Numbered from the stretch's first letter, positions 12,999 to 39,406 are shown. The stretch is DNA of 64,000 bases from an uncultured Thermoleophilia bacterium (GCA_963702475.1 CAVPCT010000009.1:224001-288000), one strand, 5' to 3'. The notes: generated by a model from the letters alone, not told the origin. Numbers and translations are program-made.

Positions 12999-13033
12999 GG
13001 AACCCGCCGTAACGAGGCGACCCATTCCAGTTC

Positions 13034-13084
13034 TTGACAGCGCCGCGGCTTGCCGAATACCGTCCATATTCACGGCGTATACAC
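13034..13084 (+). promoter_or_regulatory. sigma70-type promoter TTGACA-N18-TACCGT plus GTATAC palindrome (putative GntR operator)
   Basis: TTGACA 13034-13039, TACCGT 13058-13063, GTATACAC 13077-13084. Confidence 0.6.
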
Positions 13085-13136
13085 ACCGCTCCGCCTGACC
13101 ACTGTCCAGTCGCCGTCCTCCCGCCAGGAGAGAGCA

Positions 13137-14522
13137 GTGCCCGATCGAGTCTCGAGTGACGTGAGTCTGCGGCGCATGCTGTGGGCTCGAAGCGTGGCAG
13201 TGGTCGGCGCGTCCGCCGACCCCGGCAAGTTCGGCAACGTGCTCTTGAAGTCGCTCATCACGGGCGGGTTCGCCGGCGAGATCTACCCTGTGAACCCGCG
13301 GGCGGACGTGATCCATGGGCTGCAGTGCTATCCCCGTGTGGCGGACATCCCCTGCGACATCGATCTCGCCGTGATCATCGTGCCCGCGGCGGCCGTGCTG
13401 GACGTCGTCGAGCAGGCCAGCGAGAAAGGCGCCGCCGGCGTGTTCGTGCTCAGCGGCGGCTTCAAGGAGTCCGGCAAGCCCGAGCTCGAGGAGGCCTTGA
13501 TCGCCGCCGTTCGCGACAGGGGCATGCGCATGTTCGGACCGAACACGCAGGGAATAGCCTACGCCCCCAATCGCCTGTCGGCGGTCTTCTGGCCGGTCGT
13601 CGGCCTCCCTGGGCCGGTCGGCGTCGTCGGTCAGAGCGGTACGGTCGTCGCCGCCATCACGGACTGGGCCCTCGGCGAGGGGCTCGGCGTCAGCTGTTCC
13701 GTGAGCCTGGGCAACCAGGCCGACATCTGCGAGGCCGACGTGCTGCGGTTTCTGCAAGAGGACGAGCTGACGCGCTCCGTCGCGCTGTATCTCGAGGGAG
13801 TGAGCGATGGAACGCGCTTCGTGGAGGCACTGAGGGAAGTCGCGTGTTCACTGCCGACGGTGGTCCTGAAGTGCGGACACTCTCCGCGGGGCCGCGAGGC
13901 GGTCGCGTCGCACACGGGCTCGCTCGCCGGCGCCGACGAGGTGTTCGCCGGCCTGTGCCGCCAGTTCGGTGTCGTGCGAGCACGCGACACCGAGGAGCTC
14001 TACGACTACGCCAAGGTGCTCGCCACCATGAAGCCGCCAGACGGGCGCCGCGTCCTCGTGATGTCGTCGTCGGGCGGAAGCTGCGCCCTGGCTGCCGACG
14101 CCGCGTTCGATGCCGGCCTGGAGCTTCCGGAGCCGGCTCCCGAGGTGGTCGACGCGCTGAGGCGACTGGACCTGCCGGAGTGGGGCTCCTTCGCGAATCC
14201 GCTCGACCTCGGCGGCGTGTCTCTGGAGGCCTTTCGTGCCGCCGTCGAACTGATCGATGCGAGTGGCATGGCCGACGTCATCCTCCTCGTCTACGGCGAC
14301 CCCATCGAGGGCGCAGACGAGCTCGCCCTCGATCTCGCCCGCACCACGAAGGCGAGTATCTGCGCCGCCATCTTCGGCGGTGCGGCTGTGGAGAAGGAAC
14401 AGCGCTGGACGATGCAGCAAGGCGGCATCCCCGTATACCCGACGCCCGAACGTGCCGTCAAGGCCATCGCCGCGAGCTGCTGGTATCACGAACGGCGCAG
14501 GAGTCTGGAGGCGCGGCCGTGA
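13137..14522 (+). CDS. Acetate/acyl-CoA ligase (ADP-forming) alpha subunit
   Basis: VAVVGAS, YPVNP, GPNT, QSG and SLGN motifs; phospho-His ASHTGSLAG; AGGAG SD. Confidence 0.9.
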   Translation: MPDRVSSDVSLRRMLWARSVAVVGASADPGKFGNVLLKSLITGGFAGEIYPVNPRADVIHGLQCYPRVADIPCDIDLAVIIVPAAAVLDVVEQASEKGAAGVFVLSGGFKESGKPELEEALIAAVRDRGMRMFGPNTQGIAYAPNRLSAVFWPVVGLPGPVGVVGQSGTVVAAITDWALGEGLGVSCSVSLGNQADICEADVLRFLQEDELTRSVALYLEGVSDGTRFVEALREVACSLPTVVLKCGHSPRGREAVASHTGSLAGADEVFAGLCRQFGVVRARDTEELYDYAKVLATMKPPDGRRVLVMSSSGGSCALAADAAFDAGLELPEPAPEVVDALRRLDLPEWGSFANPLDLGGVSLEAFRAAVELIDASGMADVILLVYGDPIEGADELALDLARTTKASICAAIFGGAAVEKEQRWTMQQGGIPVYPTPERAVKAIAASCWYHERRRSLEARP

Positions 14523-15202
14523 ACGCCTTCACCGATGGGCCTCGGCGACTCATGCTCGAGCCGGACGCGGCGGCGCTCCTGACGGAGTACGAGATCGACT
14601 ACATCCGGCACGAGGTGGTCACGACACCCGAGGAGGCAGGGAGGGCTGCTGCCCGCATCGGCTTCCCCGTGGTCCTGAAGGTCGTCTCCCGCGACGTCGT
14701 GCACAAGAGCGACGTCGGCGGCGTCGTGCTGGATGTGGCGGACGAGATGGACGCTCGCGCACGGTTCGAGGAGCTGACCTCCCGGGTGAAGGCGTCAGTC
14801 CCCGGTGCGCTTGTCGACGGAGTGCTGGTCTGTCGTCAGGTCGCCGGCCCACGCGTGGAGCTCATCGTCGGGGGGCTCCGAGATGCCACGTTCGGCCCCA
14901 CGGTCATGCTCGGCGCCGGCGGTGTGTTCGCGGAGATGCTCGGCGATGTCGCGTTCCGCCTGGCGCCACTGTGCACGGACGACTGCCTTGACATGCTGCG
15001 GGAGCTGCGCGTGAGCCGGACGCTCACGGGATACCGCGACCTGCCGCCGCTGGACGTGGCCGCCGTGGCGCGGGTCGTCTCGGCGCTCGGCGATCTCCTG
15101 GTAGAGCATCCGGAGGTCGCCGAGGTGGACCTCAACCCAGTCCTCGTGCTGCCTGAGGGGTGTAAGGTCGTCGACGCGCGGATCATCACAGCAGCACGAT
15201 GA
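14519..15202 (+). CDS. Acetate/acyl-CoA ligase (ADP-forming) beta subunit, ATP-grasp
   Basis: GFPVVLK, HKSDVGGV, FGP.VM.G.GG.F.E, EVDLNP and VVDARI motifs; GTGA overlap with alpha subunit. Confidence 0.9.
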   Translation: MNAFTDGPRRLMLEPDAAALLTEYEIDYIRHEVVTTPEEAGRAAARIGFPVVLKVVSRDVVHKSDVGGVVLDVADEMDARARFEELTSRVKASVPGALVDGVLVCRQVAGPRVELIVGGLRDATFGPTVMLGAGGVFAEMLGDVAFRLAPLCTDDCLDMLRELRVSRTLTGYRDLPPLDVAAVARVVSALGDLLVEHPEVAEVDLNPVLVLPEGCKVVDARIITAAR

Positions 15203-15215
15203 ACAGGGAGACCTC

Positions 15216-15881
15216 ATGACCACGACGCGTTCCCCCCGACTGGCACCTCAGAGGGGTCGCGCCAGCGATCGCGTCCTCAGCGAACTGCGTCGCATGATCC
15301 TCACCCAGGAACTGCCTCCGGGCGCGGTGATCACCGAGGCCAGTCTCGTGAGCGTGCTCAAGTGCTCACGCACGCCGTTGCGGGAGGCACTCCAGCGCCT
15401 CAGTCACGAGCATCTCGTGGTCGCGGTGCCGGGGAGGGGCGTGTCGATCTCGGACCTGAGCATCCCGCAGTTCGGGGTCGTGCTGGAGGCGGAGGCAAGC
15501 GTCGAATCCTCCCTCGCGCGGCTCGCGGCCGAGCGCATCGACGACGCGTGCCTCTCGGCAGCGCAAGTACTGCTCGATCGCGCAACGGCGGCCGCGGAGG
15601 CTGGTGACGTTCCCGGGGTCGTGGACTGCGACTACCTCTTCCACACCACCTGGGGCGCAGCCGCGGGCAATCACCTGCTGCTGGAGTTCCAATCGATGCT
15701 GCTGCGGCTCCTCGCCCGCTACGTGTACCTCGGCTTCAATCACCCGGGCAACCCCGAAGGCGCTCTCAGCGACCACCGCAGGATCCTCGCGGCGCTTGAA
15801 CGGCACGACCCTGATGCCGCTGAGATCGCCACAAGGGAGCACATCGCGAACGGACGGGAGCGGATGCGCAGGGCGCTCTGA
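15216..15881 (+). CDS. GntR family regulator (FadR subfamily, FCD domain)
   Basis: SRTPLREAL HTH; D..FH...AGN and H..I..AL..D FCD motifs. Confidence 0.92.
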   Translation: MTTTRSPRLAPQRGRASDRVLSELRRMILTQELPPGAVITEASLVSVLKCSRTPLREALQRLSHEHLVVAVPGRGVSISDLSIPQFGVVLEAEASVESSLARLAAERIDDACLSAAQVLLDRATAAAEAGDVPGVVDCDYLFHTTWGAAAGNHLLLEFQSMLLRLLARYVYLGFNHPGNPEGALSDHRRILAALERHDPDAAEIATREHIANGRERMRRAL

Positions 15882-15906
15882 CTCCCGTGATCCGAGTCAT
15901 TCTACC

Positions 15907-15971
15907 TTGACCGTCCTTTGCCCCACGCCTAGTATGCCGACAATATACAGGGCGTATCGAATCCGTATCTT
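15907..15971 (+). promoter_or_regulatory. Promoter TTGACC-N17-TAGTAT with overlapping GTAT-type repeats (putative GntR sites)
   Basis: TTGACC 15907-15912, TAGTAT 15930-15935; gtatgc, atatac, ggcgtatcg and gtatct nearby. Confidence 0.6.
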
Positions 15972-16061
15972 GAGGGCGCGACACGCCCTGTCGCGCCAAA
16001 TCACTCCGTAGTGTGCTGGTTGCTGTCCGACACGTCGTCAAGACACGCAAGGGGGAAGCGC

Positions 16062-17699
16062 ATGAAGTCAGAGCGTGACAACGAAGGCATCGAAAGGCGC
16101 GGTCTCACGCGCAGGCAGCTGCTGCAGGCCGGTGCCGTGGCGGGCGTCGGCGGCACCATCCTGGGGAGCGCGTTCCTGGGCGCCGGGTGCGGGAGCAGCG
16201 AGGAGGGCGGGGGGTCGTCGGCGTCGCCGTCGTCCTCGGCGGCCGCCGGCAGCGTCGCGCCGGGCGGCACCTTCACGCTGGCCACCGATCAGCTGTTCCC
16301 CAAGGACAGCCTCGACACCCTGACCAACATCACCGACGGCGTGGACGCCCTTGAGGGGATGATCCGCGAAGGCCTCATCACCTACGACTTCAGCTTCACA
16401 CCCCAGCCTCGGCTGGCGGAGACATGGGACGTCAATGCGGACGCCACCGAGTACACCTTCCACCTGCGCCAGGGCGTCACCTGGCACGACGGAACGCCGT
16501 TCACGGCGAAGGACGTCGAGTTCTCTCTGCAGCGGATCCTGGACCCGGACAACGGTTCGGGCATGAACGACCGCCTGCTGTCCAGCTTCGGACCCGACGA
16601 CATCCAGGTCGTCGACGACGCCACGGTGACGCTCAAGCTCAAGCGCCCGGACTCGCTGCTGCTGCTCGCGCTCTCCAACCAGCAGTGCTATCTGACCAAG
16701 GCCGACGACGCCGACTTCGAGGCCGGCATCGGCACCGGTCCGTTCGTGCTCAAGTCCTGGGACCCCGGACGCAGCTACGAGGTGCAGAAGAACGCCGACT
16801 ACTGGATGCCCGACAGGCCATACCTGGACGTCGTCCGCGGCGTGAGCGTCGCGGAGCCGTCCACGAAGCTGCAGGGCGTGGCGACGGGCCAGTCCGACGT
16901 GACGCAGATCGCCTTCGACCAGCTGCCCGTGGTCCAGGCCAATCCCAAGCTGGTGATCAATCCGTACGAGAAGGGCATCATGTACTGCGCAGTGATGCTC
17001 ACGACGGCGGACCCGTGGACCGACGGACGCGTGCGCGAGGCCATCAAGCGTTCCCTCGATCGCGAGAAGGTCATGCAGGTCGCCTACGCCGGCCAGGCGT
17101 TCGCCTCGCCGGACTCGTGCGTGGCCATGGGCGACCCGTTCATGGACGACGCCCTCATCGCGCGCACGCAGATGGACCGCGACAAGGCCGTGCAGCTCAT
17201 GACCGAGGCCGGGTACCCGGACGGCATCGACCTCGAGCTCAAGTATCCGGGCGACCCGCTGCACGCCAACTTCGGCCTCGCAGTGGCCGAGGGCCTCAAG
17301 GGATCGCCGTTCCGCGTGACGCCCAAGGCAGTGCCGGCGGACACCTACTGGGACACGGTGTGGATGAAGGACCCGTTCTGCGTGGACGACTGGAACCGCC
17401 GTCATCCCGTCGAGACGATGACCCTACAGGTCAAGAGCAACGCCCCGTGGAACGAATCGCAGTGGAAGAGCCCGGAGATGGACGCCCTGCTCGAGAAGGC
17501 CTACGCGTCGCAGGGGGCTGAGCTCGAGGCCGTCACCACCGAGGCCTGTCTGTGGCAGTCCGACGGTGGCGGCGACGGCGGCAGCGGTGAACTGATCCCC
17601 GCCTACCTCAACCGTCTGTGGGTCTGCCGGACCGACACCGTGGTCGTACCGTGGACCTTCTCCATGCTCGACTTCCGCGAGTGTGGGTTCACTGCGTGA
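16062..17699 (+). CDS. ABC transporter substrate-binding protein, family 5 (Opp/Dpp/Nik), Tat-exported lipoprotein
   Basis: LTRRQLL twin-Arg, LGAGC lipobox, LAE.W, LRQGV.WHDG.PFTA.DV and GTGPF motifs. Confidence 0.92.
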   Translation: MKSERDNEGIERRGLTRRQLLQAGAVAGVGGTILGSAFLGAGCGSSEEGGGSSASPSSSAAAGSVAPGGTFTLATDQLFPKDSLDTLTNITDGVDALEGMIREGLITYDFSFTPQPRLAETWDVNADATEYTFHLRQGVTWHDGTPFTAKDVEFSLQRILDPDNGSGMNDRLLSSFGPDDIQVVDDATVTLKLKRPDSLLLLALSNQQCYLTKADDADFEAGIGTGPFVLKSWDPGRSYEVQKNADYWMPDRPYLDVVRGVSVAEPSTKLQGVATGQSDVTQIAFDQLPVVQANPKLVINPYEKGIMYCAVMLTTADPWTDGRVREAIKRSLDREKVMQVAYAGQAFASPDSCVAMGDPFMDDALIARTQMDRDKAVQLMTEAGYPDGIDLELKYPGDPLHANFGLAVAEGLKGSPFRVTPKAVPADTYWDTVWMKDPFCVDDWNRRHPVETMTLQVKSNAPWNESQWKSPEMDALLEKAYASQGAELEAVTTEACLWQSDGGGDGGSGELIPAYLNRLWVCRTDTVVVPWTFSMLDFRECGFTA

Positions 17700-18772: not shown

Positions 18773-18773
18773 C

Positions 18774-19664
18774 ATGGCTGCGGAGGCCACAGCGGGGACC
18801 GTCCTCGAGGCCCCGACCCGCAAGCGGGTCGGGCTCTGGCGGTCGGTCCTGCGCAGCGCTGAGGGGCGCATCGGCGTGTTCCTCGGCGTGTTCATGGTCG
18901 GCCTCATCGTGTGCGGCAGCATCTTCGCGCCGGAGACCACCTACGGCGCCGGGATGCCGGGGTCGCCCAGCTCGGCCGAGCACTGGTTCGGGACCGACGC
19001 TCTCGGCCGCGACGTGCTCCTGCGCTTTCTGCACGGCGGCGACACCGTGCTCCTCATCCCGCTCGTCGCCGTGACCCTGGCGCTGCTGCTGGGCGGCAGC
19101 CTCGGCCTGTTCGCCGCCTACTGGGGCGGACGCCCCGACGTGGTCATCTCGCGTGTGTTCGACGTGATGCTCACCATCCCGCCGTTGCTCGTGGTGCTGG
19201 TCGTCATCGGAGCCTTGGGTACGTCGAATGTGGTCCTCATCACGACGGTGGCCGTGGTGTACGCGCCGGCCCTGGGCCGCGTGGTCAGAGCCACGGCCCA
19301 GTCCGTCAAGGTCAATCCGTTCGTGTTGTCCGCACAGGCGCGGGGGGAGAGCGACCTCGCCATCATCTTCCGTGAGATCGTGCCCAACGTCTCCGGCCCT
19401 GTGCTGGCCGAGTTCGGCCTGCGTCTCACCTACGCCATCCTGTTCGTGGCCACCCTGAGCTTCCTCGGCCTGGGCGTCCAGCCGCCCTCCCCCGACTGGG
19501 GGCTCATGGTGGCGGAGAACCGCGGTCTGCTGACCATCGCGCCCTGGGGCACGATGCTCCCGGCTCTCGGTATCACCGCCTTGGCCGTGTCGTTCAACCT
19601 CATTGCCGATGCCGTGTCCAAGAGCCTGGCCGGCGATGAACTGAGCCGGCTGGCCGTGATATGA
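18774..19664 (+). CDS. Peptide/nickel ABC transporter permease (DppC-like)
   Basis: [11 protein letters not shown] and [15 protein letters not shown] motifs. Confidence 0.92.
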
Positions 19665-21589
19665 GCGCGCCCGTCGAGGTCAGCGGAGTCGCCTGCGACA
19701 CCGGCGGCGTGAACGTGCGTATCGTGCCCGGAGAGCCGGTGCTCGACGTGCGTGACCTGTCGGTGGGCTACCGCCAGCACCACGGGGACGTCCTTCGGGT
19801 CGCGGCCGGGGTCGACCTGGTGTTGCGCGGCGGGGAGGTGCTCGGTCTTGCGGGGGAGTCCGGTTGCGGCAAGAGCACGGCCGCCCTCGCTGCCGTCGGC
19901 TATCGCCACCCCGGCGGCGTGATCCTGAGCGGCCGTTCGCTGCTCGGCGACACCGACCTGCTGCAGCTGCCGCAGTCCTCGCTGCGGACGCTGTGGGGCG
20001 GCCGCGTGGCGTACATCTCACAGAACGCGGCCGCCTCTCTCGACCCGTCCATGACGATCACCCGGCACTTCGACGAGGTCCTGAGCAAGCATGCCGGCAT
20101 CAAGGGCCAGGCCGCCGCCGCGCGCAAGCTCGAGCTGCTCGAGCAGGTGCGCATACCGGACCCCCCGGGCGCGCTGCTGCGCTACCCGCATCAGCTGAGC
20201 GGCGGCCAGCAGCAGCGCGTGTCGCTGGCGCTCGCGTTCGCCTGCCACCCGGCCGCCCTCATCCTTGACGAGCCCACCACCGGCCTCGACGTGACCACGC
20301 AGACGCAGATCACGGCCCTTCTTCGCGCGCTGATCGCCGAGACGGGCGTGGCCGTGATGTACGTGAGCCACGACCTCGCGCTTCTCTCCACGGTGGCCAA
20401 CGACGTGGCGGTGATGTACGCAGGCGAGATCGTGGAGCGCGGGCCGGTACGGTCGCTGGTCACCGAGCCGCTCCATCCCTACACGCACGCACTGCTGCAT
20501 GCGGTGCCCAGTGCCCGCGGCCGCCAGGCGATCGCGGGCATCCCCGGCGAGCCCCCGGTGAGCGTCAGCGACACCAGCTGCTCGTTCGCGCCCCGCTGCC
20601 CGTATGCCCTCGACGGCTGCCGGGACGCTCACCCCGAGGCGCGTGAGCTCGCACCCGGCCGCACCGTGCGCTGCGTGCGCGCTGAGGAGGTGCACGAGGG
20701 TCTGCGCATCGTGTCCATGCCGACTCTTGCCGACGGGGGCGCGGCCGCCGGGGTCGCCACGGCGGTCGTTGACCTGCTGGAGGTGGACAAGGTCTCCTGC
20801 TACTACGGCACCGGTCGCCGCCGTGTGCGCGTGGTCCGCGATATCTCCTTCAGGCTCGGCGACGCCGAGGTGCTCGGCATCGTCGGCCTCAGCGGGAGCG
20901 GCAAGTCCACGCTGCTGCGCGCCATCGCCGGCGTGCTCGACGATGTGGAGGGCTCCATCGTCTTCCGCGGCGAGCCGCTGGCGCGCAGCGCCGTGAAGCG
21001 CCCGCGTGCGATCCGGCGACAGGTGCAGATCGTCTTCCAGGATCCCGCCTCGTCTCTCAACCCGCGCCACACCGTGGGGCAGATCATCGCGCGAGCCGTC
21101 TCGCTCTTCCGCGAGGACGTGCCCCACGACCGCACCGGCGAAGCCGTCGCCGAGCTCCTCGAGAGCGTGAAGCTCTCGCGCGCCTTCGTGGGCCGGTACC
21201 CTTCGGAGCTCAGTGGCGGCCAGCAGCAGCGCGTGGCCATAGCGCGCGCGTTCGCCGCTCGCCCAAGCCTTCTGCTCTGCGACGAGGTGACCTCCGCGTT
21301 GGACGTCTCGGTGGCCGCGACCATCATCGAGCTCCTCCGCGACCTCATCAGCCGATCCGGCACGGCCGTGCTGTTCGTCAGCCACGACCTGGCCGTGGTG
21401 CGCACCGTCGCCGACCGGGCCATCGTGATGCGCGACGGTCTGTTGTGCGAGGCCGGTTCCACTGAGGCCCTGTTCCTGCGTCCGCGCCACCCCTACACGG
21501 TGGAGCTGCTGTCCTCCATCCCCGACATCGCCGACGTGCGCTCACGCGTGCAGGCCGAGCGCGCGTCGCGGCCGGGAGGGAGCGCGTGA
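19661..21589 (+). CDS. Fused double ABC ATPase (DppD/F-like)
   Basis: Two Walker A motifs ([16 protein letters not shown]), two LSGGQQQR signatures, HPYT and C.FAPRC motifs. Confidence 0.93.
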
Positions 21590-22692
21590 GCGGCGGCGCT
21601 GTCGTCGTGGCCGGTGGCGGCGCCCAGGGGCTTGCACTGGCAGCCGGGCTCACACGCGCCGGGCACGAGGTGATCCTGTTCGAGACGGAGGCGCGCCGCG
21701 AGCGCATCGCGCCGTTTCTGAGCGGAGGTCCGATCACCGTGCTCGAGCGGAGCGAGGTCGCGGCCGTCTCACCCGCCATGGTCACCTGCGACCCTTTCGA
21801 GGCGTTCGCCGCCGCCGATGTGCTGCTCGTCATGGTACCGCCGCGCGAGCGCCGCGCGTTCGGAGAGCTGCTGTTGCCACTCGTCGAGCCTCGCCACGTG
21901 CTGGTGGTCGCCTCCGGCGGACTGGACGCACTGTTGTTCGCACACTGGCTGCTCGCCCGCGGGCGCTGGATCGACGGCTTGGCGACGTTCGCCGCCACGG
22001 ACCTCGAGCCGTACACGTGTCACAGGAGAGGACCGGATGCCGTGAGCGTGCACGGGCGGACGGCGCCGCTGGGGGTCGGGGTGTTCCCGGCTTCGCGGAC
22101 CCCGGGGGCGCTGCAGGTCCTCGAGCCGCTCCTGGGTCCGCTCAACGCCTACCCGCACGCTGCGGCTGCGGGTCTGTGTGACGCGGTCGCCCTGCTGCGC
22201 TTGGGCACGCTCGTGTTCAATGCTGCCCGCGTGGAGCGCGGCGCGGAAGCGTTCCTGCTGTACGAAGACGGGTTCACGCCCGGTGTGGCGGCCGTGCTCG
22301 AGGCGCTGGACGCCGAGCGCCGGGCAGTGGCGGCGGCCCTCGGATACGCAGCGCCGCGCCTCGAAGAGGTCCTCACTGCCGCGGGCCTGGGGCCGCGAGG
22401 CGACCTGTGGACCACCGTGCACGCCAGCCGCGTGCTCTCGCGCGTGCAGGCTCCGCGGGCACTCGATGGGCGCTGGCTGAGCGACGGCCTGGCCGCGGTA
22501 CGCGCATGGGTCGCGCTTGGAGAGCACCTGGACGTGCCGGTCCCGGGGCTGGCCGCCGCCGCGCGTCTCGCGAGCGCGCTGCTGGGCTCTGACGAGGCCG
22601 GCGGCGAGAGCCCGCTGGAGGCGCTGGGAGTGGAGCGCATGGATCGAGATGCGCTCCTGCGCTACTTGCAGGCGGGGGAGACCGGCCAATGA
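21586..22692 (+). CDS. NAD(P)-dependent octopine/opine dehydrogenase-fold protein, degenerate active site
   Basis: GGGAQG Rossmann motif; GVGVFPA and [28 protein letters not shown] of the Octopine_DH domain. Confidence 0.78.
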
Positions 22693-23798
22693 GCGGGGAG
22701 GGCGATATGGGCATCAGAGTGCACGCCGACGGGCAGTGGGTGAGGGGGCCTGCAGCGTGGCCCGGTCCCGTGATCGCCGACGCGCACAACGACCTGCTCG
22801 TGGAGGTCGGCGCCTTCGACCACGAGCCCCACGCCTTCCGCGACCGCTGGCTGCGCCAGCTCAGGGACGGCGGCGTGGCGCTGCAGTTCTGTCCCGTGTC
22901 AGTGGGCGTCGAGCAACTCCCCGAGTGGGGCCTCCGCATGGCCCTGCGTCAGGCTGCGGCGTGCCACCGCGCCGTCCTGGACGATCCCGCGGAGCTCGTG
23001 CTGGTGCGCGAGCGGCGCGATCTCGACGAGGCGGCCGCGAGCGCGCGCACGGCTCTTCTGCTGTCGATGGAGGGTGCGGAGCCGCTGGGCTACGACCCGT
23101 CCATGCTCGACGTGTTCTGGCTGCTCGGCGTGCGCGCGCTGGCTCTCACCTGGAACCGGCGCAATCCGTTTGCCGACGGCCTCAGCGAACAGACTGACGG
23201 CGGGCTCAGCGAGCTCGGCAGGGACCTCGTCGCTCGAGCCGCCCGCCTCGGCATGATCATGGACCTGGCTCACGCCTCACCTCGGACCTTCGACGAGGTC
23301 CTCGAGGGGGCCCCCGACGCCCCCGTCATCGTCAGCCACGCCGGCTGCCGGGCGGTGTTCGACACGCCGCGGAACTTGACGGATGAGCAGCTGCGGGTGC
23401 TCGCGGAGCGCGGCGGCGTGCTCGGCGTGATGGCGTTGCCCCTGACCGTGGACCTGCACGAGCCCACGCTCGAGCGGTTCCTCGACCACGTCGACCACGC
23501 GGTCGCCGTGATGGGCGCCGCACACGTCGGTCTCGGCGCCGATTTCATGGAGCAGATCGTGGCCTCGGGGGCCGAACCTGCCGTGCAGGCCACGAGCCTC
23601 ATGCCCGAGGGCCGGTCGTTCGCCGAAGCCATACCCGGCCTGGCCGGGCCGCTCGACTACCCGGCGCTTGCCGACGCGCTGGCCGGGCGCGGACACGACG
23701 AAAGCGTCGTGGCCGCCATCCTGGGAGGCAACCTTGTCCGGCTCGTGGCTGCGGCGCTCGACGCGGTCCCGGGCTCCGAGTGGAGGGAGGTCCAGTGA
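22689..23798 (+). CDS. Membrane/renal dipeptidase family (M19)
   Basis: DAHND, SMEG, LTWN, DLAH, SHA, RNLTD and GLGADF motifs. Confidence 0.92.
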   Translation: MSGEGDMGIRVHADGQWVRGPAAWPGPVIADAHNDLLVEVGAFDHEPHAFRDRWLRQLRDGGVALQFCPVSVGVEQLPEWGLRMALRQAAACHRAVLDDPAELVLVRERRDLDEAAASARTALLLSMEGAEPLGYDPSMLDVFWLLGVRALALTWNRRNPFADGLSEQTDGGLSELGRDLVARAARLGMIMDLAHASPRTFDEVLEGAPDAPVIVSHAGCRAVFDTPRNLTDEQLRVLAERGGVLGVMALPLTVDLHEPTLERFLDHVDHAVAVMGAAHVGLGADFMEQIVASGAEPAVQATSLMPEGRSFAEAIPGLAGPLDYPALADALAGRGHDESVVAAILGGNLVRLVAAALDAVPGSEWREVQ

Positions 23799-24463
23799 GC
23801 GCGGATGCGGAAGCATCGCTCGCCGCGATCGTGGCGGCGTTCACCGGCGGCGACTACGACGGCGTCTCCGGGCTCGTGCAGCGAGGTCTGGACCAGGGAC
23901 TCGCGCCACAGACACTGATGGACGACGGCCTCGTCGCGGGCATCCGCGAGGTGGGGGAGATGTTCCGTCGCGGTGAGGCGTACCTGCCGGAGCTGCTGCT
24001 GGCCGCCGAGGCGTGGGAGGCCGGCGTGGCGGTCCTCCGGCCGCACCTCGCCGACGCGCCTCTCGCCCAAGTGGCGGGCGTCGTCGTCATCGGGACGGTG
24101 AAAGGCGACATCCACTCGCTCGGCAAGGACATCGTCACGACCATGCTGCGCACCGCCGGGTTCGAGGTCGTGGATCTCGGGGTCGACGTCCCGGCGTCGC
24201 GATTCGTCACGGCTGCGGCAGAGGCGCACGCCGACGTCATCGCGGTCACCGCCCTGATGACCACCACGATGCCCCAGCAGCGCGAGGTGATCGCGCATCT
24301 CATCGCGAGCGGTCACAGAGACGACGTGGCTGTGCTCGTCGGCGGTGCGTCCACCACTGACGCATGGGCCGCCGAGATCGGCGCCGACGGGCACGGCGAG
24401 ACGGCGGCCGACGCCGTGAGCCTGGCGCAAGAGATTTGCGGACGGACGCGGAGGGGGGCCTGA
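23795..24463 (+). CDS. Methyltransferase cognate corrinoid (B12-binding) protein, MtmC/MttC-like
   Basis: B12 cap domain plus GTVKGDIHSLGK (DxHxxG), DLGVDVP, ALMTTT and VGG motifs. Confidence 0.93.
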   Translation: MSADAEASLAAIVAAFTGGDYDGVSGLVQRGLDQGLAPQTLMDDGLVAGIREVGEMFRRGEAYLPELLLAAEAWEAGVAVLRPHLADAPLAQVAGVVVIGTVKGDIHSLGKDIVTTMLRTAGFEVVDLGVDVPASRFVTAAAEAHADVIAVTALMTTTMPQQREVIAHLIASGHRDDVAVLVGGASTTDAWAAEIGADGHGETAADAVSLAQEICGRTRRGA

Positions 24464-25848
24464 TGCTCACCAACCTGGAGATCTTCCGGCGCGCGAGCGC
24501 GGGCGAGATCTGCGCACAGAAGGACTTCGACCTCAAGCGGTACATCCCCACGGTGCGGCGGCTGGCCAGGGAGTTCGGCATCAGCTACGACCCCGCCCAC
24601 CCGGTGCCGTCGGACGACGACCTTGCGGACCGGCTGTGGGAGGCCGGCAGGCGTCTGTTCCTCGAGGTCGGCGCCTATTGCGTCGACACCGAGCGGGTGA
24701 TCGCCTTCGAGGAGGCCGAGCTCGACCAGGCCCTGGCGCACGCACCGAGGACGGTGACACTCGGGACCGGTCAGTACGCGAGGACGATCCCGGCGCGCCG
24801 GCCGGAGAGCGATGTACTGCCGTTCTTCTCGCTGGGCGCCTGCGGCGCTCCGGTCTCGACTGACGACGTCTTCGTGAGCCTCTCACAGGCGTACTGCGAG
24901 ATCCCCTACGCCGACGCCCTCGCCGTGCCGTCCCTCACGCAGGTGGACGGCATGACCATCGTAGCGGGCAGCCCGCTCGAGGTGGAGGGGTGCGTCCGCA
25001 CCGTCACGATGGCGAGGGAGGCCGCGCGCCGCGCCGGCCGCGCCGGCATGGGCATCTCCAACACGGTGCCCACCGGCGTGCGCTCACAGGGCCACATCGC
25101 CGGCAACGCGGCCGCCGCCGACCAGTACGACATGATGGAGATCGGCGGCGTCGCCGAGCTGAAGATCGACTTCGACAGCATGAGCAAGATCGCGTACATG
25201 CTGGGGCGGGGCCGCACGATCCTCGGAGAGACGGGGCCCATCATCGGCGGCTACGCCGGCGGACCGGAGACCTGTGCCGTCACCCTGGTGGCCTATCACT
25301 TCTTCGCGCTGCTCGTCCTGCGGGCCAGCGTCCAGCATCCGTTCACGTCCCACTACCAGACGCAATCGTGCACGTCCAGGCAGGCCCTGTGGCTCACCGC
25401 GCTGGCTCTGCAGGCGATCACCCGGCACAGCCGCGTGCCGTGTCTGGAGACCGGGACTTTCGCGGGTGGAGCCGGCACGGAGATGAGCCTCTTCGAGGCG
25501 GCCGCCATGTCGGCCGCGACCGTGGTCTCCGGCGCCAACATCGAGGCCGCCCCCGCCGCCAGAGCCACGCGCATCGATCACCAGTGCCCGCTGACGAGCC
25601 TGTTCACGGCCGAATGCGGGCGCTCCGTAGCGGGCATGTCGCGCGCCGACGTGAACGCCATCGTCGTGCGACTGCTGGACCGGTACGAGCACCTCCTGGA
25701 CGACCCCCCGCCAGGGCGCCGCTACCAGGACTGCTTCGACATGGGGAGCAGGCGTCCCGACGCGGAGGCTCTGGCTGTGTACCGACACGCCCGTGACGAG
25801 CTCGAGGGCATGGGCCTTGAGTTCAGGGACCCGCCCTTCTATGCCTGA
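24463..25848 (+). CDS. MtmB (monomethylamine:corrinoid methyltransferase) family protein without pyrrolysine
   Basis: RRASAG....KDFD, VPSDDDLADRL, YCVDTERVI, AGRAGM, ELKIDF and IGGYAGGPE motifs; no in-frame TAG. Confidence 0.85.
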   Translation: MLTNLEIFRRASAGEICAQKDFDLKRYIPTVRRLAREFGISYDPAHPVPSDDDLADRLWEAGRRLFLEVGAYCVDTERVIAFEEAELDQALAHAPRTVTLGTGQYARTIPARRPESDVLPFFSLGACGAPVSTDDVFVSLSQAYCEIPYADALAVPSLTQVDGMTIVAGSPLEVEGCVRTVTMAREAARRAGRAGMGISNTVPTGVRSQGHIAGNAAAADQYDMMEIGGVAELKIDFDSMSKIAYMLGRGRTILGETGPIIGGYAGGPETCAVTLVAYHFFALLVLRASVQHPFTSHYQTQSCTSRQALWLTALALQAITRHSRVPCLETGTFAGGAGTEMSLFEAAAMSAATVVSGANIEAAPAARATRIDHQCPLTSLFTAECGRSVAGMSRADVNAIVVRLLDRYEHLLDDPPPGRRYQDCFDMGSRRPDAEALAVYRHARDELEGMGLEFRDPPFYA

Positions 25849-25956
25849 TGCACGCGACGCGTCTGAGTAGCTCCGCACGAGAGGCCGGCAGATGAGAACG
25901 ACAGGCGCGCAGTGCCTCGCCCGCGTGAGGCGCAGCAGCGCGAGGAGGATCAGATC

Positions 25957-26988
25957 ATGAGCGCAGCCGCGTACACGCCGCCGGCGGGCGCGGAGGTGGT
26001 CAGCACCATCGAAGCTCACGCCGCCGGGGAGCCTCTTCGCGTGATCGTCGAGGGCCTCCCGTCCATCCCCGGGCACACGATGCTGGCCAAGCGCCGTCAC
26101 GCCCAGGAGTACCTGGACACGTGGCGGCGCAGGCTCATGTGGGAGCCCCGGGGGCACGCCGACATGTACGGGGCCATCCTCACGGACCCGGTCCGTGAGG
26201 GCAGCACGTGTGGTGTGCTCTTCCTGCACAACGAGGGCTTCAGCACCATGTGCGGGCACGGCGTGATCGCACTCGCGACCGTACTCGTCGAGGCCGGGCT
26301 CGTGAGCGCGGACGACAGCCCCGTGGTCATCCCGATAGACACGCCGGCCGGCCTCGTCGTGGCGCGCGTCGAGCACGACGGCGGCCGCGTGCGCGACGTG
26401 GCGTTCACGAACGTGCCCTCCTTCGTGTACCGGCGGGGCATAGAAGTGGAGGTCCCCGGCCTCGGCGCCACCGTGTGCGACATCGCCTTCGGCGGCGCCT
26501 ACTACGCGTTCTGCGAGGCCGGCGACCTCGGCCTCTCGCTCGAGCCTTCGAAGCACGACCGCCTGATCGACGCGGGCAGGCAGGTGAAGGCCGCGGTGCT
26601 CGCCCAGGTGTCCATCGACGACCCGGTGGCGCCCGACCTGGGCTTTCTGTACGGGGTGATCTTCACGGGCCCTGCGGGCGAGGCCGGTCACCACAGCAGG
26701 CACGTCTGCGTCTTCGCGGAGGGCGAGGTGGACCGTTCGCCCACGGGCACCGGCGTGAGCGCCAGAGCCGCTCTGCTGTACGACGCGCGCGAGCTCGATG
26801 ACGGTGAGGCCATCGTCATCGAGAGCATCCTCGGCACCTGCTTCGGTGTCACGGTCGTCGGCCACGACTCCGTCGGGGCGCATCCGGCGGTCATACCCCA
26901 GGTGTCCGGGGAGGCGTTCATCACCGGCACGAGCACGTTCTTCGTCGACCCGAAGGATCCGCTGGGCGATGGCTTCATCTTTCGCTGA
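25957..26988 (+). CDS. Proline racemase family, Cys/Thr type (trans-3-hydroxy-L-proline dehydratase-like)
   Basis: H.AGEPLR, EPRGHADMYG, MCGHG and DRSPTGTG motifs; GAGGAGG SD. Confidence 0.88.
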   Translation: MSAAAYTPPAGAEVVSTIEAHAAGEPLRVIVEGLPSIPGHTMLAKRRHAQEYLDTWRRRLMWEPRGHADMYGAILTDPVREGSTCGVLFLHNEGFSTMCGHGVIALATVLVEAGLVSADDSPVVIPIDTPAGLVVARVEHDGGRVRDVAFTNVPSFVYRRGIEVEVPGLGATVCDIAFGGAYYAFCEAGDLGLSLEPSKHDRLIDAGRQVKAAVLAQVSIDDPVAPDLGFLYGVIFTGPAGEAGHHSRHVCVFAEGEVDRSPTGTGVSARAALLYDARELDDGEAIVIESILGTCFGVTVVGHDSVGAHPAVIPQVSGEAFITGTSTFFVDPKDPLGDGFIFR

Positions 26989-27050
26989 GTGACCGTCGTG
27001 TCATCAGTATCCAGAATGTATACACTGTGCATCTGCAGTGGATGCGATAC
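26989..27050 (+). promoter_or_regulatory. Internal promoter-like region (GTGACC-N17-CAGAAT) with perfect TGTATACA palindrome
   Basis: TGTATACA 27017-27024, preceded by agtatcc; AT-rich patch. Confidence 0.55.
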
Positions 27051-27103
27051 CTCGGACCCTGGCGCGCTTGACTGCGTCCACGGCCGGGCAGGGGGGTTGA
27101 CGC

Positions 27104-28060: not shown

Positions 28061-28073
28061 GAAGGGGGAGTCA

Positions 28074-29309: not shown

Positions 29310-29335
29310 CGCGGTGCAGAGCGGAGGGCCGAGCC

Positions 29336-30781
29336 ATGGCGACCAAGAAGGTGTCCCTGCTGAGCACGGAGGCGCTGGACCGAATCCACGCCGGATCGCT
29401 GCGCATCCTCTCGGGTACCGGCGTGCGCGTGGAGAACGCCCGCTGCCGCGCCGTGCTGGTGAAGGCCGGGGCGAAGCAGGAGGGGCAGACCGACCTCGTG
29501 CGTCTGCCCGCCGCCATGGTCGAGGAGGCCATGGCGCAGCTCACCAAGGACTTCGACCTCGTGCACCCCGGCGGCGCGCGCATGCACACGCCGGACGGGC
29601 GCCAGCACGCCGGCGTGCGCCTCAAGATGCCCAAGGTGCTCGACTACGGCGCGCGCGAGTTGCGACCGCCGGCGCGTCGGGACGTCATCGACCTGAGCCG
29701 CATCATGAACGCCCTGCCGGGGGCCGAGTTCTCGGTGGCCATCCAGTACCCGTCGAGCGACGTGCCGCCGCAGATCGACGTCGCCGACACCCTGGGCCTG
29801 GTGCTGGCCATCACCGGCAAGCTCAGCCTGTGCGCCCCCCAGGACGTCGACGACGCTCGCACCTCCCTGGACGTGCTCATGGCCGGAGCGGGCACGGACG
29901 ACATGGACCGGGACCCCTGCACGTGGGTGGAGATCAACACGGCGACGCCGCTGGTGCTCGGCGACCGGGAGGGCAGCATCATCCTGCACGTCGCGGAGCG
30001 CCGGTGCCCCGTGGACCTCGGCCCCATGCCTATCGCCGGAGTCGCCACGCCGGCGACGCTGGCCGGCAACCTCGTGCTCGGCAACGCCGAGGCGTTGTTC
30101 CTGTGCACGCTGACCAACGCCATCTGGCCGGGAGCCAAGGTCCTTCACGCCACGACCGGTTCCCTGATGAACATGCGCACCGGCTACCTCTCCATGGGCT
30201 CGGCGGAGACCTGCCTCCTGAGCAGCGGCGAGATGGCGCTGGCCAAGTACTACGGCCTGCCCTCCACGCGCATGGGCGGCTACAGCGACTCGCAGTGGCC
30301 TGACGTGCAGGCCGGCATCGAGAAGGCCATGGCGCTGCTCATCCTGGCCCAGAGCGAGGCCGACTTCGTGACCATGGGCGGCCCTCTGGACAACGCCGCC
30401 CACCACAGCTATGAGCAGGTGGTGATCGACCACGACATCTGGGAGATGGCGCAGCGCCTCACCCGGGAGATCGAGGTGAACGATGAGACCCTGGCCGGCG
30501 ACGTCATCGCCAGGGTAGGCCCGGGTGGGTCCTTTCTGGGCGAGACGCACACGCGGCGGGCGGTGCAGGCCGGGGAGCACTACTACGGCGGGTCGTTCAA
30601 CCACATGGGCCGCGCCGGCGAGGAGTACACGATGCTGGCGCGGGCGCATCAGCGTGTGGAGGAGATCCTCGCGCAGCCGTTCGAGTACGTCGCCCCGCCT
30701 GACGCGGTGCAGCGCCTCAAGGACTGTGTGCGCGAGCACGCGATCCAGAAGAAGGTCGCGCCGCCGGAGTGGACGGAGTGA
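29336..30781 (+). CDS. MttB (trimethylamine methyltransferase) superfamily protein without pyrrolysine
   Basis: IH..SL.IL...G, G.ATPATLAG.LV..NAE.L, G..E and YGLP.....SDS..PD.QAG.EK motifs; no in-frame TAG. Confidence 0.9.
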   Translation: MATKKVSLLSTEALDRIHAGSLRILSGTGVRVENARCRAVLVKAGAKQEGQTDLVRLPAAMVEEAMAQLTKDFDLVHPGGARMHTPDGRQHAGVRLKMPKVLDYGARELRPPARRDVIDLSRIMNALPGAEFSVAIQYPSSDVPPQIDVADTLGLVLAITGKLSLCAPQDVDDARTSLDVLMAGAGTDDMDRDPCTWVEINTATPLVLGDREGSIILHVAERRCPVDLGPMPIAGVATPATLAGNLVLGNAEALFLCTLTNAIWPGAKVLHATTGSLMNMRTGYLSMGSAETCLLSSGEMALAKYYGLPSTRMGGYSDSQWPDVQAGIEKAMALLILAQSEADFVTMGGPLDNAAHHSYEQVVIDHDIWEMAQRLTREIEVNDETLAGDVIARVGPGGSFLGETHTRRAVQAGEHYYGGSFNHMGRAGEEYTMLARAHQRVEEILAQPFEYVAPPDAVQRLKDCVREHAIQKKVAPPEWTE

Positions 30782-30841
30782 GCGGCTCCGCCTGAGCCGT
30801 CCGCCGGGGGCACGAGCCGCCTCAGGGGAGGGAGAGAGCAG

Positions 30842-32068
30842 ATGAGCATGAGACACGTGGCTCCCGGCTTCCTGGCCGCGAGGCGAGTGGACCGCCTGGG
30901 CACGGAGCTGGTCTTCGCCGTGGCCGAGGAGGCGGCGGCGCTCGCCGCACAGGGCCGCGACGTCTACCCCTTCCACATGGGAGAGCTCGACTTCGAGACG
31001 CCCCCGAACATCGTGGAAGCGTGCGTGCGCGCCCTCCGCGACGGCAAGACGAAGTACACGCCCAACGGCGGCTTGCCAGAGCTGCGGGAGGCGCTCGCCG
31101 CCGACGTGGGCAGCGAGCGCGGCGTCGCCTACAGGCCGGAGAACGTCGCGGTCCAGCCGGCGGGCAAGCCGGTCATCGGCAAGTTCCTGCTGGCGCTCAT
31201 GGACCCGGGGGACGAGGTCCTCTATCCCAACCCCGGGTTCCCGATCTACTCGTCGCTGATCGAGTTCTTCGGCGGCGTCGCCGTCCCGTACGCCTACGTG
31301 GAGGGCGAGGACGGGTTCCGCATCGATCTCGACGACCTGGAGCGCCGCATCACCAGCCGCACCCGCCTGCTCATCGTGAACGACCACCACAATCCGACCG
31401 GGTCGAGGTGCACCGCGGAAGAGATGGAGCGACTCGCGCAACTGGTGGTCGAGCACGACCTGTTCGTGCTCAGCGACGAGGCGTACTTCGCCATCCGCTA
31501 CGGCGGCCGAAGCCTCTCAATCGTGTCGCGGCCGGAGATGCAGGAGCGCACGGTGATCCTGTACACGTTCGGCAAGAAGTACGCCATGACCGGCTTCCGC
31601 CTGGGCGCGGCCATCGGGCCGGCCCCGGTCATCGACATCATCGTGCGCCTCAACGTGAACTGGGAGGCGTGCTGCAACCACTTCGCGCAATACGGGGCCG
31701 TCGAGGCACTCACCTGCGCGGACAGCGGGCTGGACGGGCGCCTCGCGGCGCTGCGGGAGCGGCGCGACGCGGGCGTGGAGATCCTCAACAGCACGCCCGG
31801 TGTGCGCTGTCTGCGCCCCGACAGCACGTTCTATCTGTACCCGAACGTGACCGGAGCGGCGCGGCTCCTCGGGTGCGACGACCACGAGAGCTTCCGCCGC
31901 CTGGTCCTCGACGAGACGGGCGTGTCGTTCTCGACCCGCCCTCACTACGGGGAGCCCCTTCCGGACGAGACCGACCTGTACATCCGCGTGTCGTATTCGG
32001 GCATCCCCGTCGACCGCCTCAGGGAGGGCCTCGAGGTGTTCCGGGCGCTCGTCCTCTCGCGAGCCTGA
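30842..32068 (+). CDS. Class I/II PLP aminotransferase
   Basis: GELDF.TP, YTPNGG.PELR, HNPTG, SDEAY and FGKKYAMTGFRLG motifs. Confidence 0.92.
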   Translation: MSMRHVAPGFLAARRVDRLGTELVFAVAEEAAALAAQGRDVYPFHMGELDFETPPNIVEACVRALRDGKTKYTPNGGLPELREALAADVGSERGVAYRPENVAVQPAGKPVIGKFLLALMDPGDEVLYPNPGFPIYSSLIEFFGGVAVPYAYVEGEDGFRIDLDDLERRITSRTRLLIVNDHHNPTGSRCTAEEMERLAQLVVEHDLFVLSDEAYFAIRYGGRSLSIVSRPEMQERTVILYTFGKKYAMTGFRLGAAIGPAPVIDIIVRLNVNWEACCNHFAQYGAVEALTCADSGLDGRLAALRERRDAGVEILNSTPGVRCLRPDSTFYLYPNVTGAARLLGCDDHESFRRLVLDETGVSFSTRPHYGEPLPDETDLYIRVSYSGIPVDRLREGLEVFRALVLSRA

Positions 32069-32130
32069 GCCCGCCGCCGGCGGCAGAGGGTCCCGCTACC
32101 GCGGTCGCGGCGCCACAACGTCACGCGCCC

Positions 32131-32160
32131 TTGCCGCGGCCCGCCGCCAACTGCTACCAT
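32131..32160 (+). promoter_or_regulatory. pyr operon promoter TTGCCG-N18-TACCAT (extended TGn -10)
   Basis: ttgccg 32131-32136; tgcTACCAT ending 32160, directly before the PyrR leader. Confidence 0.6.
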
Positions 32161-32164
32161 ACCT

Positions 32165-36189: not shown

Positions 36190-39386
<3,197 letters not shown>

Positions 39387-39406
39387 GACAGGGGGGCGAC
39401 GACGTG

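Follow-up and report, generated by a model that had tools for sequence, protein, structure and literature searches.

Two pyrrolysine-free methylamine methyltransferase homologues share a conserved gene cluster with BKACE and a beta-transaminase-like gene in an uncultured Thermoleophilia bacterium

Gene content of the cluster

The 64-kb window analyzed here (64,000 nucleotides; GCA_963702475.1, CAVPCT010000009.1:224001-288000) comes from an uncultured Thermoleophilia bacterium and has the character of DNA from a high-GC, soil-type actinobacterium, with a GC content of about 70%. Between rluD and a gene read as pyrR it carries 16 genes on the same (+) strand, among them two pyrrolysine (Pyl)-free methyltransferase homologues of the MtmB and MttB families, one corrinoid protein, and transport and catabolic genes, and this cluster is the subject of the present work. 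Open reading frames (ORFs) were listed, their starts were refined by reading the sequence, and 53 proteins of the window were scanned with Pfam and NCBIfam; gene order and families agree with those claimed in a preliminary description of this DNA:

13137-14522 (+), ACD alpha with CoA-binding/ligase domains; TIGR02717 402 bits (cut-off 567); the ORF opens at 13050
14519-15202 (+), ACD beta (ATP-grasp_5); PF13549 230 bits
15216-15881 (+), transcription regulator of the GntR/FCD family; PF00392 and PF07729
16062-17699 (+), SBP_bac_5, the family-5 solute-binding protein (SBP) of an ABC importer; PF00496 231 bits
17696-18772 and 18774-19664 (+), two ABC permeases; PF00528
19661-21589 (+), fused double ABC ATPase of the Dpp/Opp/Nik type; two ABC_tran stretches and oligo_HPY
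21586-22692 (+), opine-dehydrogenase-fold NAD(P) oxidoreductase (Octopine_DH/ApbA; OpDH); PF02317 65 bits (cut-off 30) and ApbA
22689-23798 (+), metallohydrolase of the M19 (renal-dipeptidase) family; PF01244 270 bits
23795-24463 (+), corrinoid (B12-binding) protein; PF02607 and PF02310; TIGR02370 201 bits (cut-off 215)
24463-25848 (+), MtmB-like methyltransferase, 461 aa; PF05369 279 bits (cut-off 25)
25957-26988 (+), protein of the Pro_racemase superfamily (PRS); PF05544 357 bits
27104-28060 (+), BKACE; PF05853 287 bits
28074-29309 (+), class-III aminotransferase of the GSAM/beta-transaminase branch (Aminotran_3; AT3); PF00202 181 bits
29336-30781 (+), MttB-like methyltransferase, 481 aa; PF06253 218 bits (cut-off 25)
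30842-32068 (+), class-I/II aminotransferase (Aminotran_1_2; AT1); PF00155 179 bits

The probable start of the ACD alpha gene is a GTG at 13137 that is preceded by AGGAGAG, and the SBP gene starts with the ATG at 16062, preceded by GGGGGAAG. For comparison with other genomes, 26 MtmB-like proteins were aligned and the alignment was used to fetch 70 loci (numbered with the prefix L) from one-genome-per-species contigs; window proteins were searched by tblastn against these loci, and 829 of their ORFs were called and clustered.

The two methyltransferase homologues and their corrinoid protein

Both methyltransferase ORFs are uninterrupted and Pyl-free, as had been claimed. In the alignment to the solved Pyl enzyme the MtmB-like protein has a Ser at the Pyl position ('GMGISNTV'), a position that is occupied by Ser, Ala or Gly throughout its close clade, and the MttB-like protein has a Tyr ('MGGYSDS'). 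The MtmB-like protein matches M. barkeri MtmB with 217 bits over nearly the full length (query residues 6-454 versus chain 11-458). The MttB-like protein is equidistant from Pyl-MttB (7xcl) and MtgB (9yce), with about 144 bits to either, and reaches 255 bits with TIGR02369, the model for the Pyl-dependent trimethylamine methyltransferase, which is below the cut-off of 525 at which this model assigns equivalogs. MtgB binds glycine betaine through Y97, F356, R312 and H348 (PMC13080624). In the alignment with 9yce these four residues correspond to Leu, Ala, Thr (the next residue being Arg) and a gap, respectively, as counted by hand with the published number equal to the chain index plus 2 and with a poorly aligned region around Y97. 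Identity of the MttB-like protein with MtgB is ruled out by the absence of the four glycine-betaine-binding residues.

The corrinoid protein contains the DxHxxG motif in the form 'GDIHSLG', and the MT1 and corrinoid parts of a methyltransferase system are therefore both represented. According to Pfam the cluster holds one B12-binding gene for two methyltransferase homologues, in line with the shared corrinoid protein suggested earlier. When the MttB-like and corrinoid proteins were modeled as a complex, scores of 0.20 and 0.13 were obtained (mark 0.32), which speak neither for nor against such sharing. A methyl-corrinoid:tetrahydrofolate methyltransferase (MT2) or a RamA-type reductive activase was found neither among the 53 scanned proteins of the window nor in the scanned ORFs, within +/-10 kb of the clusters at L001, L003, L004 and L007, or among representatives of the 45 commonest neighbor clusters. 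The route is thus not complete as encoded here, and the wording 'complete route' of the preliminary description cannot be maintained. The missing MT2 and activase are not fatal to it, because MtgB of Ruegeria works with MtgC, MtgD and reactivation proteins, MtgBCD being run by aerobes, and because several MttB-family enzymes of Eubacterium limosum use one corrinoid protein (PMC12478193).

With MtgB, MtpB, MtcB, MtyB and MthB of E. limosum and MtgBCD of Ruegeria pomeroyi, the window shares the combination of a Pyl-free MttB homologue with a small DxHxxG corrinoid protein (PMC12478193, PMC13080624). These MttB systems demonstrate that corrinoid sharing is possible, and likewise operation in aerobes whose genes for MT2 and reactivation lie at other sites (PMC12478193). 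In contrast to the E. limosum and Ruegeria systems, the MttB-like protein of the window is paired with an MtmB homologue.

The MtmB-like family and its gene neighborhoods

Non-Pyl homologues of MtmB have been known for years. To our knowledge a function, published in 2026, is proven for just one of them, MtqB from Methanococcoides methylutens Q3c, for which tetramethylammonium and choline serve as methyl donors to the corrinoid protein; conserved Met, Cys and aromatic positions in the active site mark the MtqB clade (PMC13044021). The statement in the preliminary description that no substrate was established for non-Pyl MtmB proteins is outdated by this one case. In both MtqB/MtqC and the window a Pyl-free MtmB-family gene lies beside its corrinoid gene. 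However, MtqB is archaeal and passes the methyl group to coenzyme M, whereas the window enzyme is actinobacterial and, unlike MtqB/MtqC, is set in a catabolic operon with importer, M19, OpDH, PRS, BKACE and aminotransferases.

At an E-value of 1e-3 or below, the MtmB family is small and comprises 933 clusters at 50% identity among 1.84 billion representatives, and one full-length representative among these clusters belongs to the clade of the window protein. In the protein collection the MttB-like protein of the window was matched at 100%, on a contig of 370,007 bases, and the MtmB-like protein at 93% at best; a single surplus N-terminal residue in the MtmB query would not account for this on its own, and the gene calling of the source may differ.

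Among the 70 MtmB loci, a corrinoid gene is near MtmB in 62 by tblastn and in 51 by clustering. The commonest non-methyltransferase neighbor is Aminotran_3, with 36 genes in 23 of the 70 loci, and in 13 of these 23 it is the immediate same-strand neighbor of MtmB or of the corrinoid gene; ABC ATPases (18 loci), SBP_bac_5 (17) and MttB (14) are also found. Recurring strings are Corr-MtmB-(MtmB)-AT3-AFOR (L021, L047), Aldedh-Corr-MtmB-Aldedh-AT3-MttB (L051) and Corr-MtmB-AT1 (L062, L063, L066). The dominance of Aminotran_3 fits demethylation to a free amine that is then transaminated and oxidized, which is the simplest reading, and the proposal of demethylation followed by backbone breakdown is therefore consistent with the neighborhoods of the family as a whole. 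Many substrate specificities are suggested by the context-specific clades of the MtmB tree, for example those linked to AT1, M24 and PALP, AFOR/AT3, PTE/MR_MLE or enolase.

Three groups of such loci are recorded here for themselves. In the sister clade of the window's MtmB, from Anaerolineae MAGs (metagenome-assembled genomes; L005 7929-12725, L006 230-4425, and L018), MtmB lies beside enolase, a DUF4147/MOFRL protein that we take to be glycerate kinase-like, an MFS transporter and a LarA-like protein, with no aminotransferase adjoining, which hints at a different methylated substrate of the glycerate or serine type. Loci of the Desulfobacterales type (L019, L023, L031, L032, L033, L039) carry a string of sigma-54 activator, PALP, M24/creatinase-like, corrinoid, MtmB, D-Glu cyclase-like and SBP_bac_5 genes, their MtmB proteins form a clade of their own (100*), and the string possibly encodes a route of the creatine/sarcosine type. 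Dehalococcoidia loci (L014, L017, L024, L027, L030, L043) possess two to three tandem MtmB paralogues, in a context-specific clade, together with phosphotriesterase-family, MR_MLE, alpha/beta hydrolase and aldo-keto reductase genes.

It is very improbable in our view that the methyltransferases of the window act on other methyl donors, such as O- or S-methyl compounds, or mainly feed methionine and C1 metabolism as MtgBCD does. Donors in the family may be diverse, given the MtmB-like clades beside enolase and glycerate kinase instead of aminotransferases at L005, L006 and L018, and in Ruegeria betaine demethylation is connected to methionine synthesis through MtgC and MtgD (PMC12478193). However, all characterized members of both families use methylated amines (PMC13044021, PMC12478193), aminotransferases dominate the MtmB neighborhoods, and no homocysteine- or pterin-binding gene is present among the scanned window proteins.

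Transcription units and a shared upstream motif

The stop codon of the ACD alpha gene and the start codon of the ACD beta gene overlap in GTGA, and the GntR gene begins 13 nt after the ACD beta gene. From SBP to MtmB, seven consecutive junctions are overlaps of 1-4 nt (GTGA, ATGA or TGATG) or a 1-nt gap: GTGA is found at SBP/permease, ATPase/OpDH and M19/corrinoid gene, ATGA at permease/fused ATPase and OpDH/M19, and TGATG at corrinoid gene/MtmB. These seven junctions indicate that importer, OpDH, M19, corrinoid protein and MtmB form one translationally coupled unit. Three upstream regions share promoter- and operator-like elements:

13034-13084 (+), region 5' of the ACD operon, containing TTGACA and, at 13077-13084, the operator-like GTATACAC
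15907-15950 (+), upstream of the transporter operon, promoter-like TTGACC-17-TAGTAT followed by the operator-like ATATACAG
26975-27040 (+), upstream of BKACE, promoter/operator-like region CAGTAT-N7-GTATACAC

The TTGACC-17-TAGTAT arrangement upstream of SBP is a predicted sigma-70-like promoter. The octamer RTATACAS has three sites in the 64 kb, all of them intergenic and solely upstream of the ACD, SBP and BKACE genes, for an expectation of 0.27 in the window and with none of 100 shuffles reaching three, the pattern having been picked post hoc from k-mer comparison and reading; a repeat search of two intergenic regions gave local hairpins only. In relatives, TTGAC-N17-TAGTAT-N7-8-GTATACA is kept upstream of BKACE at three loci (L001, L002, L007), one of which, L007, also has it upstream of SBP, and at L004 a palindrome, CGTATACG, is located upstream of a GntR-BKACE unit. 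This recurrence of the layout provides independent support for a shared promoter and operator. Operators of the GT-N-AC type belong to the GntR/FCD family, and a palindrome like CGTATACG fits that type. Judged from these sequences, the RTATACAS-type motif is probably a shared promoter and operator, putatively of the GntR/FCD protein, whose orthologues at L001 and L004 are 66% and 50% identical. Three transcription units are predicted as probable: ACD alpha-ACD beta-GntR; SBP-permeases-ATPase-OpDH-M19-corrinoid-MtmB(-PRS); and BKACE-AT3-MttB(-AT1). We consider the chances evenly balanced that the cluster as a whole would act as one catabolic regulon for an imported N-methylated amino compound, probably under the control of the GntR/FCD protein.

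Conservation of the cluster in other genomes

Synteny with the window is found in four Actinomycetota MAGs, three of which belong to Thermoleophilia. At L001 (Thermoleophilia MAG) the order from ACD beta to MttB is identical, with 52-86% identity; at L002 (Thermoleophilia) the cluster is kept without PRS, and the locus ends right after MttB; L007 (Thermoleophilia) keeps SBP, MtmB, PRS, BKACE, AT3 and MttB, with OpDH and M19 missing; and L004 (Actinomycetes MAG) carries a rearranged cluster without OpDH and M19. A reduced set of ACD, a PRS member, BKACE, a corrinoid gene and MtmB at 63% is present at L003, from an Anaerolineales MAG of the Chloroflexota. Full or near-full synteny at four loci and the reduced form at a fifth dispose of the possibility, raised in the preliminary description, that these genes never occur together elsewhere.

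BKACE occurs in 5 of the 70 MtmB loci (clustered ORFs). A FastTree of 102 MtmB-like proteins unites these loci and the window in one subclade (support 86) within a 100* clade of eight, and BKACE is thus tied to one MtmB subclade, being present for all six members, window included, versus none of the 65 other loci. The most tightly conserved block, with a conserved promoter-like layout of its own, is BKACE-AT3-MttB, and AT3 lies immediately 3' of BKACE in the window, L001, L002 and L007. Among metagenomic matches, contigs of equal size appear in both the MtmB and the MttB lists (n=7: 21404, 44094, 22393, 52101, 10250, 47037 and 311404); among the BKACE matches, the size 22393 recurs from both lists, and the sizes 10175, 4268 and 15230 recur from the MttB list. 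We infer that equal size means the same contig.

The last gene, AT1, had been described as a member of the cluster; an orthologue is found at none of the four syntenic loci (L001, L002, L004, L007), although L002 ends after MttB, and its membership could not be upheld. Other genes that vary among the relatives are 3HIBDH, 3HCDH with ILVD_EDD, M20 and PutA. Downstream of MttB, L001 differs from the window in carrying PutA and PanB. A PutA flanking two relatives was considered and ruled out, the aldehyde dehydrogenase of L007 sharing only 33% identity with the L001 PutA domain. Separately, the MttB gene of L001 (14800-16244) and the AT3 and MttB genes of L004 (12549-14573) are split into two frames, representing assembly frameshifts or pseudogenes.

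On sequence grounds, the cluster is not a chance mosaic, because synteny in four MAGs, the reduced form in another phylum, the coupled junctions and the recurring motif coincide. A functional mosaic is a different matter: importer, OpDH and M19 could constitute a peptide or opine unit, with methyltransferases, PRS, BKACE-AT3 and ACD acting in unrelated pathways. The variation of accessory genes between relatives, the origin of the close relatives in one lineage, and the fact that no known compound explains all genes would agree with this explanation, which we nevertheless regard as very unlikely, since overlapping start and stop codons tie the transporter, OpDH, M19, corrinoid and MtmB genes together, the upstream motif is common to three units and conserved in relatives, ACD, PRS, BKACE, corrinoid and MtmB genes are found together in another phylum (L003), and BKACE accompanies a single MtmB subclade.

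Enzymes predicted to act on the backbone

The PRS homologue had been described as a Cys/Thr type, and it carries the Cys in 'STMCGHG' and the Thr in 'DRSPTGTG', both of which are conserved in L001 and L007. This pair is the rule stated for dehydratases of trans-3-hydroxy-L-proline (t3Hyp) in PMC4113996. The best solved relative, with 386 bits, is 6r76, the proven t3Hyp dehydratase of T. litoralis (PMC9309405), followed by human L3HYPDH with 279 bits; with NF045511 the protein scores 370 bits, below the cut-off of 540. The window resembles the bacterial, archaeal and human t3Hyp pathway, consisting of t3Hyp dehydratase and pyrroline-2-carboxylate (Pyr2C) reductase, in a Cys/Thr PRS nearest to the T. 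litoralis enzyme (PMC4113996, PMC9309405). It differs from that pathway in that Pfam finds no Pyr2C reductase of the OCD or Ldh_2 type and in that PRS is embedded among methyltransferases and BKACE. The PRS member of L003 (5676-6728), which stands beside ACD, BKACE and MtmB, is of the Ser/Cys type and only 34% identical, and a PRS enzyme of another activity may take that place there.

These features lead to an explanation in which the substrate is a (hydroxy)proline betaine: the MttB-like protein would act as MtpB, the MtmB-like protein would remove the second methyl group, PRS would convert t3Hyp to pyrroline-2-carboxylate and OpDH would reduce this to proline, with BKACE, AT3 and ACD as a separate co-regulated module. 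The Cys/Thr pair and the proven t3Hyp dehydratases as nearest relatives favor it (PMC4113996), as does MtpB, whose single demethylation of proline betaine (PMC12478193) would give a second enzyme something to do. In L001 the gene immediately after the cluster is PutA. The reduction of alpha-imino acids by opine dehydrogenases is established chemistry. We give this explanation a low probability: PRS is absent from L002 and OpDH from L004 and L007, no known Pyr2C reductase family (OCD, Ldh_2) is represented in the scanned proteins, PutA adjoins only one of the four loci, and BKACE-AT3-MttB being the tightest block with its own promoter disfavors BKACE and AT3 as a side module.

For BKACE the best NCBIfam model is Kce (3-keto-5-aminohexanoate cleavage enzyme of lysine fermentation), with 244 bits and thus below its cut-off of 382. 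The motifs HxH, ELEIY and RVGLEDN (R..ED), presumably the metal-binding and catalytic residues, align with Kce 2y7d, and an Ile is found where Kce has the Glu of 'GAETTR'; a catalytic Glu is known in BKACE15 (PMC11961710). The likeness to Kce, in best model and aligned motifs, does not extend to the system, since lysine aminomutases and Kdd are absent from the window and the beta-keto acid would come from a transaminase, not a dehydrogenase. Solved relatives of AT3 are 6k8h (251 bits), ForI (229), GSAM (about 219), the beta-Phe aminotransferase 4ao9 (219) and the beta-transaminase 2yku (202). In engineered E. coli a chain of beta-alanine transaminase and BKACE works in vivo, and malonate semialdehyde is a substrate for more than 20 of 124 BKACEs (PMC11961710), so that a pairing of AT3 with BKACE is chemically sound.

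A BKACE near a dehydrogenase gene also brings to mind the carnitine dehydrogenase/BKACE route of Pseudomonas and Sinorhizobium, where BKACE serves quaternary ammonium catabolism. In a route of this type, OpDH would oxidize a beta-hydroxy-gamma-(trimethylammonio) acid, BKACE would use acetyl-CoA to form betainyl-CoA and acetoacetate, ACD would yield betaine and ATP, and the MttB-like and MtmB-like proteins would demethylate last. 3HCDH, as encoded at L007, is to our understanding the family of carnitine dehydrogenase, and a dehydrogenase of related fold occurs at each syntenic locus: Octopine_DH/ApbA in the window, L001 and L002, a 3HIBDH type beside GntR and BKACE at L004, and 3HCDH at L007. 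ACD could stand in for the thioesterase, carnitine and glycine betaine are known demethylation substrates of MttB-family enzymes (PMC12478193), and carnitine dehydrogenase plus BKACE is the known Pseudomonas route from carnitine to glycine betaine (PMC12482172; NetSyn preprint, BKACE group G5). Nevertheless, this explanation seems rather unlikely to us, as the MttB-like protein is without the glycine-betaine-binding residues of MtgB, PRS, AT3 and M19 are given no role, a dimethylglycine step is missing, and BKACE scores best with the Kce model, yet with Ile replacing the Glu of 'GAETTR'. The window also differs from the carnitine route in having neither a 3HCDH-type carnitine dehydrogenase nor a thioesterase, in the beta-transaminase-like gene as conserved partner of BKACE, and in the B12-dependent demethylation proposed for it, demethylation in the carnitine/glycine betaine route being oxidative.

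As for the remaining proteins, the alpha and beta parts of ACD are both present, and the alpha part does not reach the acetate-specific TIGR02717 (402 versus 567). The best solved relative of SBP is AgaA (6hlx; 122 bits), which we take to be a binder of agropinic acid, an opine. OpDH has a GxGxxG motif and the helical and Rossmann domains of Octopine_DH, all of its top Atlas clusters are Octopine_DH, and sequence comparison gave a single solved relative, CENDH 1bg6, which is distant (71 bits). The M19 protein shows about 105 bits to solved M19 dipeptidases.

Genomic surroundings

The flanking genes were confirmed at the family level by Pfam:

12024-12998, rluD
32201-32833, PRTase-domain gene read as pyrR

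A pyr leader had been proposed as the downstream border; no Rfam model matched at the gathering threshold in the whole window or at E<=1 in 31950-32350, and the leader could not be corroborated. Neither a cobalamin riboswitch nor a PyrR element was detected by Rfam in the window, the sole match being a chance lncRNA (E 0.17). Of the term 'island', the gene block on the (+) strand stands and the label finds little support, with GC contents of 0.67-0.73 inside and 0.69-0.73 in the flanks. No integrase was found among the scanned window proteins and no tRNA at the cluster borders; with flat GC and no mobile genes or border tRNA, the idea that composition gives evidence of a horizontally acquired island was rejected. 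The remainder of the window consists of housekeeping genes (recG, sepF, divIVA, lspA, pyr/car genes, nusA-infB, pnp, dapBA). About 800 bases between carB-like and DHO_dh genes (39386-40192) have no called gene in the GC3-based ORF pick, and a 93-nt tRNA-Arg(TCG) called by ARAGORN at 42519-42611 (+) within a Flavoprotein/DFP (CoaBC-type) ORF (42433-43650) is probably false.

Discussion

The cluster belongs to a known kind of system, the corrinoid-dependent demethylation of methylamines and quaternary amines; new is the combination of both Pyl-free families with a backbone set of beta-transaminase, BKACE and ACD in Actinomycetota. The preliminary description did not recognize the combination as a described pathway, and we agree, having found no description of an MtmB/MttB/BKACE/PRS cluster in the literature searched. 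The main text of the NetSyn BKACE preprint contains no corrinoid, methyltransferase or proline-racemase context (its supplements might list one), and MttB is brought together with BKACE in the introduction of PMC12482172 only. The search yielded nothing on N-methylproline with a corrinoid methyltransferase and nothing relevant on Mtt or Mtm proteins of Thermoleophilia.

The observed families, motifs, synteny, coupled junctions and common upstream motif allow a route to be predicted, with the chemistry of each step, the succession of the steps and the substrate all being part of the prediction. The family-5 ABC importer would take up a peptide-like, opine-like or betaine-type solute, and the M19 hydrolase and OpDH, both coupled to the transporter, would release or convert the methylated moiety. 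The MttB-like protein would then remove a methyl group from a quaternary or tertiary nitrogen and the MtmB-like protein the last N-methyl group, both loading the single DxHxxG corrinoid protein, with unloading of the methyl-corrinoid to tetrahydrofolate and re-reduction of the cofactor performed by proteins encoded elsewhere. The freed amine would be removed by the GSAM/beta-transaminase-like AT3, BKACE and acetyl-CoA would split the resulting beta-keto acid into acetoacetate and an acyl-CoA, and the two-subunit ACD would convert the acyl-CoA to the acid and ATP. The Cys/Thr PRS might dehydrate a ring of the 3-hydroxyproline type, and an imine reductase, with OpDH as candidate, would turn the resulting pyrroline-2-carboxylate into proline. 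The substrate would most likely derive from a beta-amino acid or a 3-hydroxy-imino acid, as its betaine or N-methyl form, and may arrive as a small conjugate. The two examples named in the preliminary description, hydroxyproline betaine and a methylated beta-amino acid, are speculative candidates.

As a tentative proposal, which we regard as possible and not as probable, the Pyl-free MttB-like and MtmB-like proteins, sharing one corrinoid protein, would together demethylate an imported betaine or N-methyl amino acid as far as the free amine, with the MtmB-like protein as the first non-oxidative methyltransferase for secondary (N-monomethyl) amines, and the product would pass through beta-transaminase, BKACE and ACD with conservation of ATP, which together would constitute a new oxygen-independent mineralization of methylated nitrogen in soil Actinomycetota and Chloroflexota. 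Several observations weigh against a single regulon with the route predicted above. MT2 and activase genes are absent from the window and the scanned syntenic ORFs, and only two methyltransferases are available while a trimethylammonium group takes three demethylations. The one non-Pyl MtmB that has been characterized acts on quaternary and not on N-monomethyl amines (PMC13044021). The cluster proteins miss every equivalog-level cut-off of NCBIfam, and no single known compound requires PRS, BKACE, AT3, M19 and OpDH together. Accessory genes differ among relatives (OpDH and M19 absent from L004 and L007, PRS from L002), the PRS member of L003 is Ser/Cys, and PutA adjoins the cluster in L001 alone among the four syntenic loci. 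Actinomycetota account for every one of the four close relatives, Thermoleophilia for three, so that their synteny is partly common ancestry and conservation of the cluster extends in effect over two independent lineages, and the RTATACAS operator motif was defined once its sites had been seen.

The present analysis puts a bacterial MtmB clade into an interpretable catabolic context of importer, hydrolase, transaminase, BKACE and ACD, and narrows the candidate substrates to a panel that can be tested. If the predicted route is true, B12-dependent demethylation would run from a betaine fully to the primary amine, and BKACE and beta-transaminase would be a natural pair. Thermoleophilia are a mostly aerobic class, and such demethylation would then occur in its uncultured soil members; a marker set for the turnover of methylated nitrogen in soils would also be gained.

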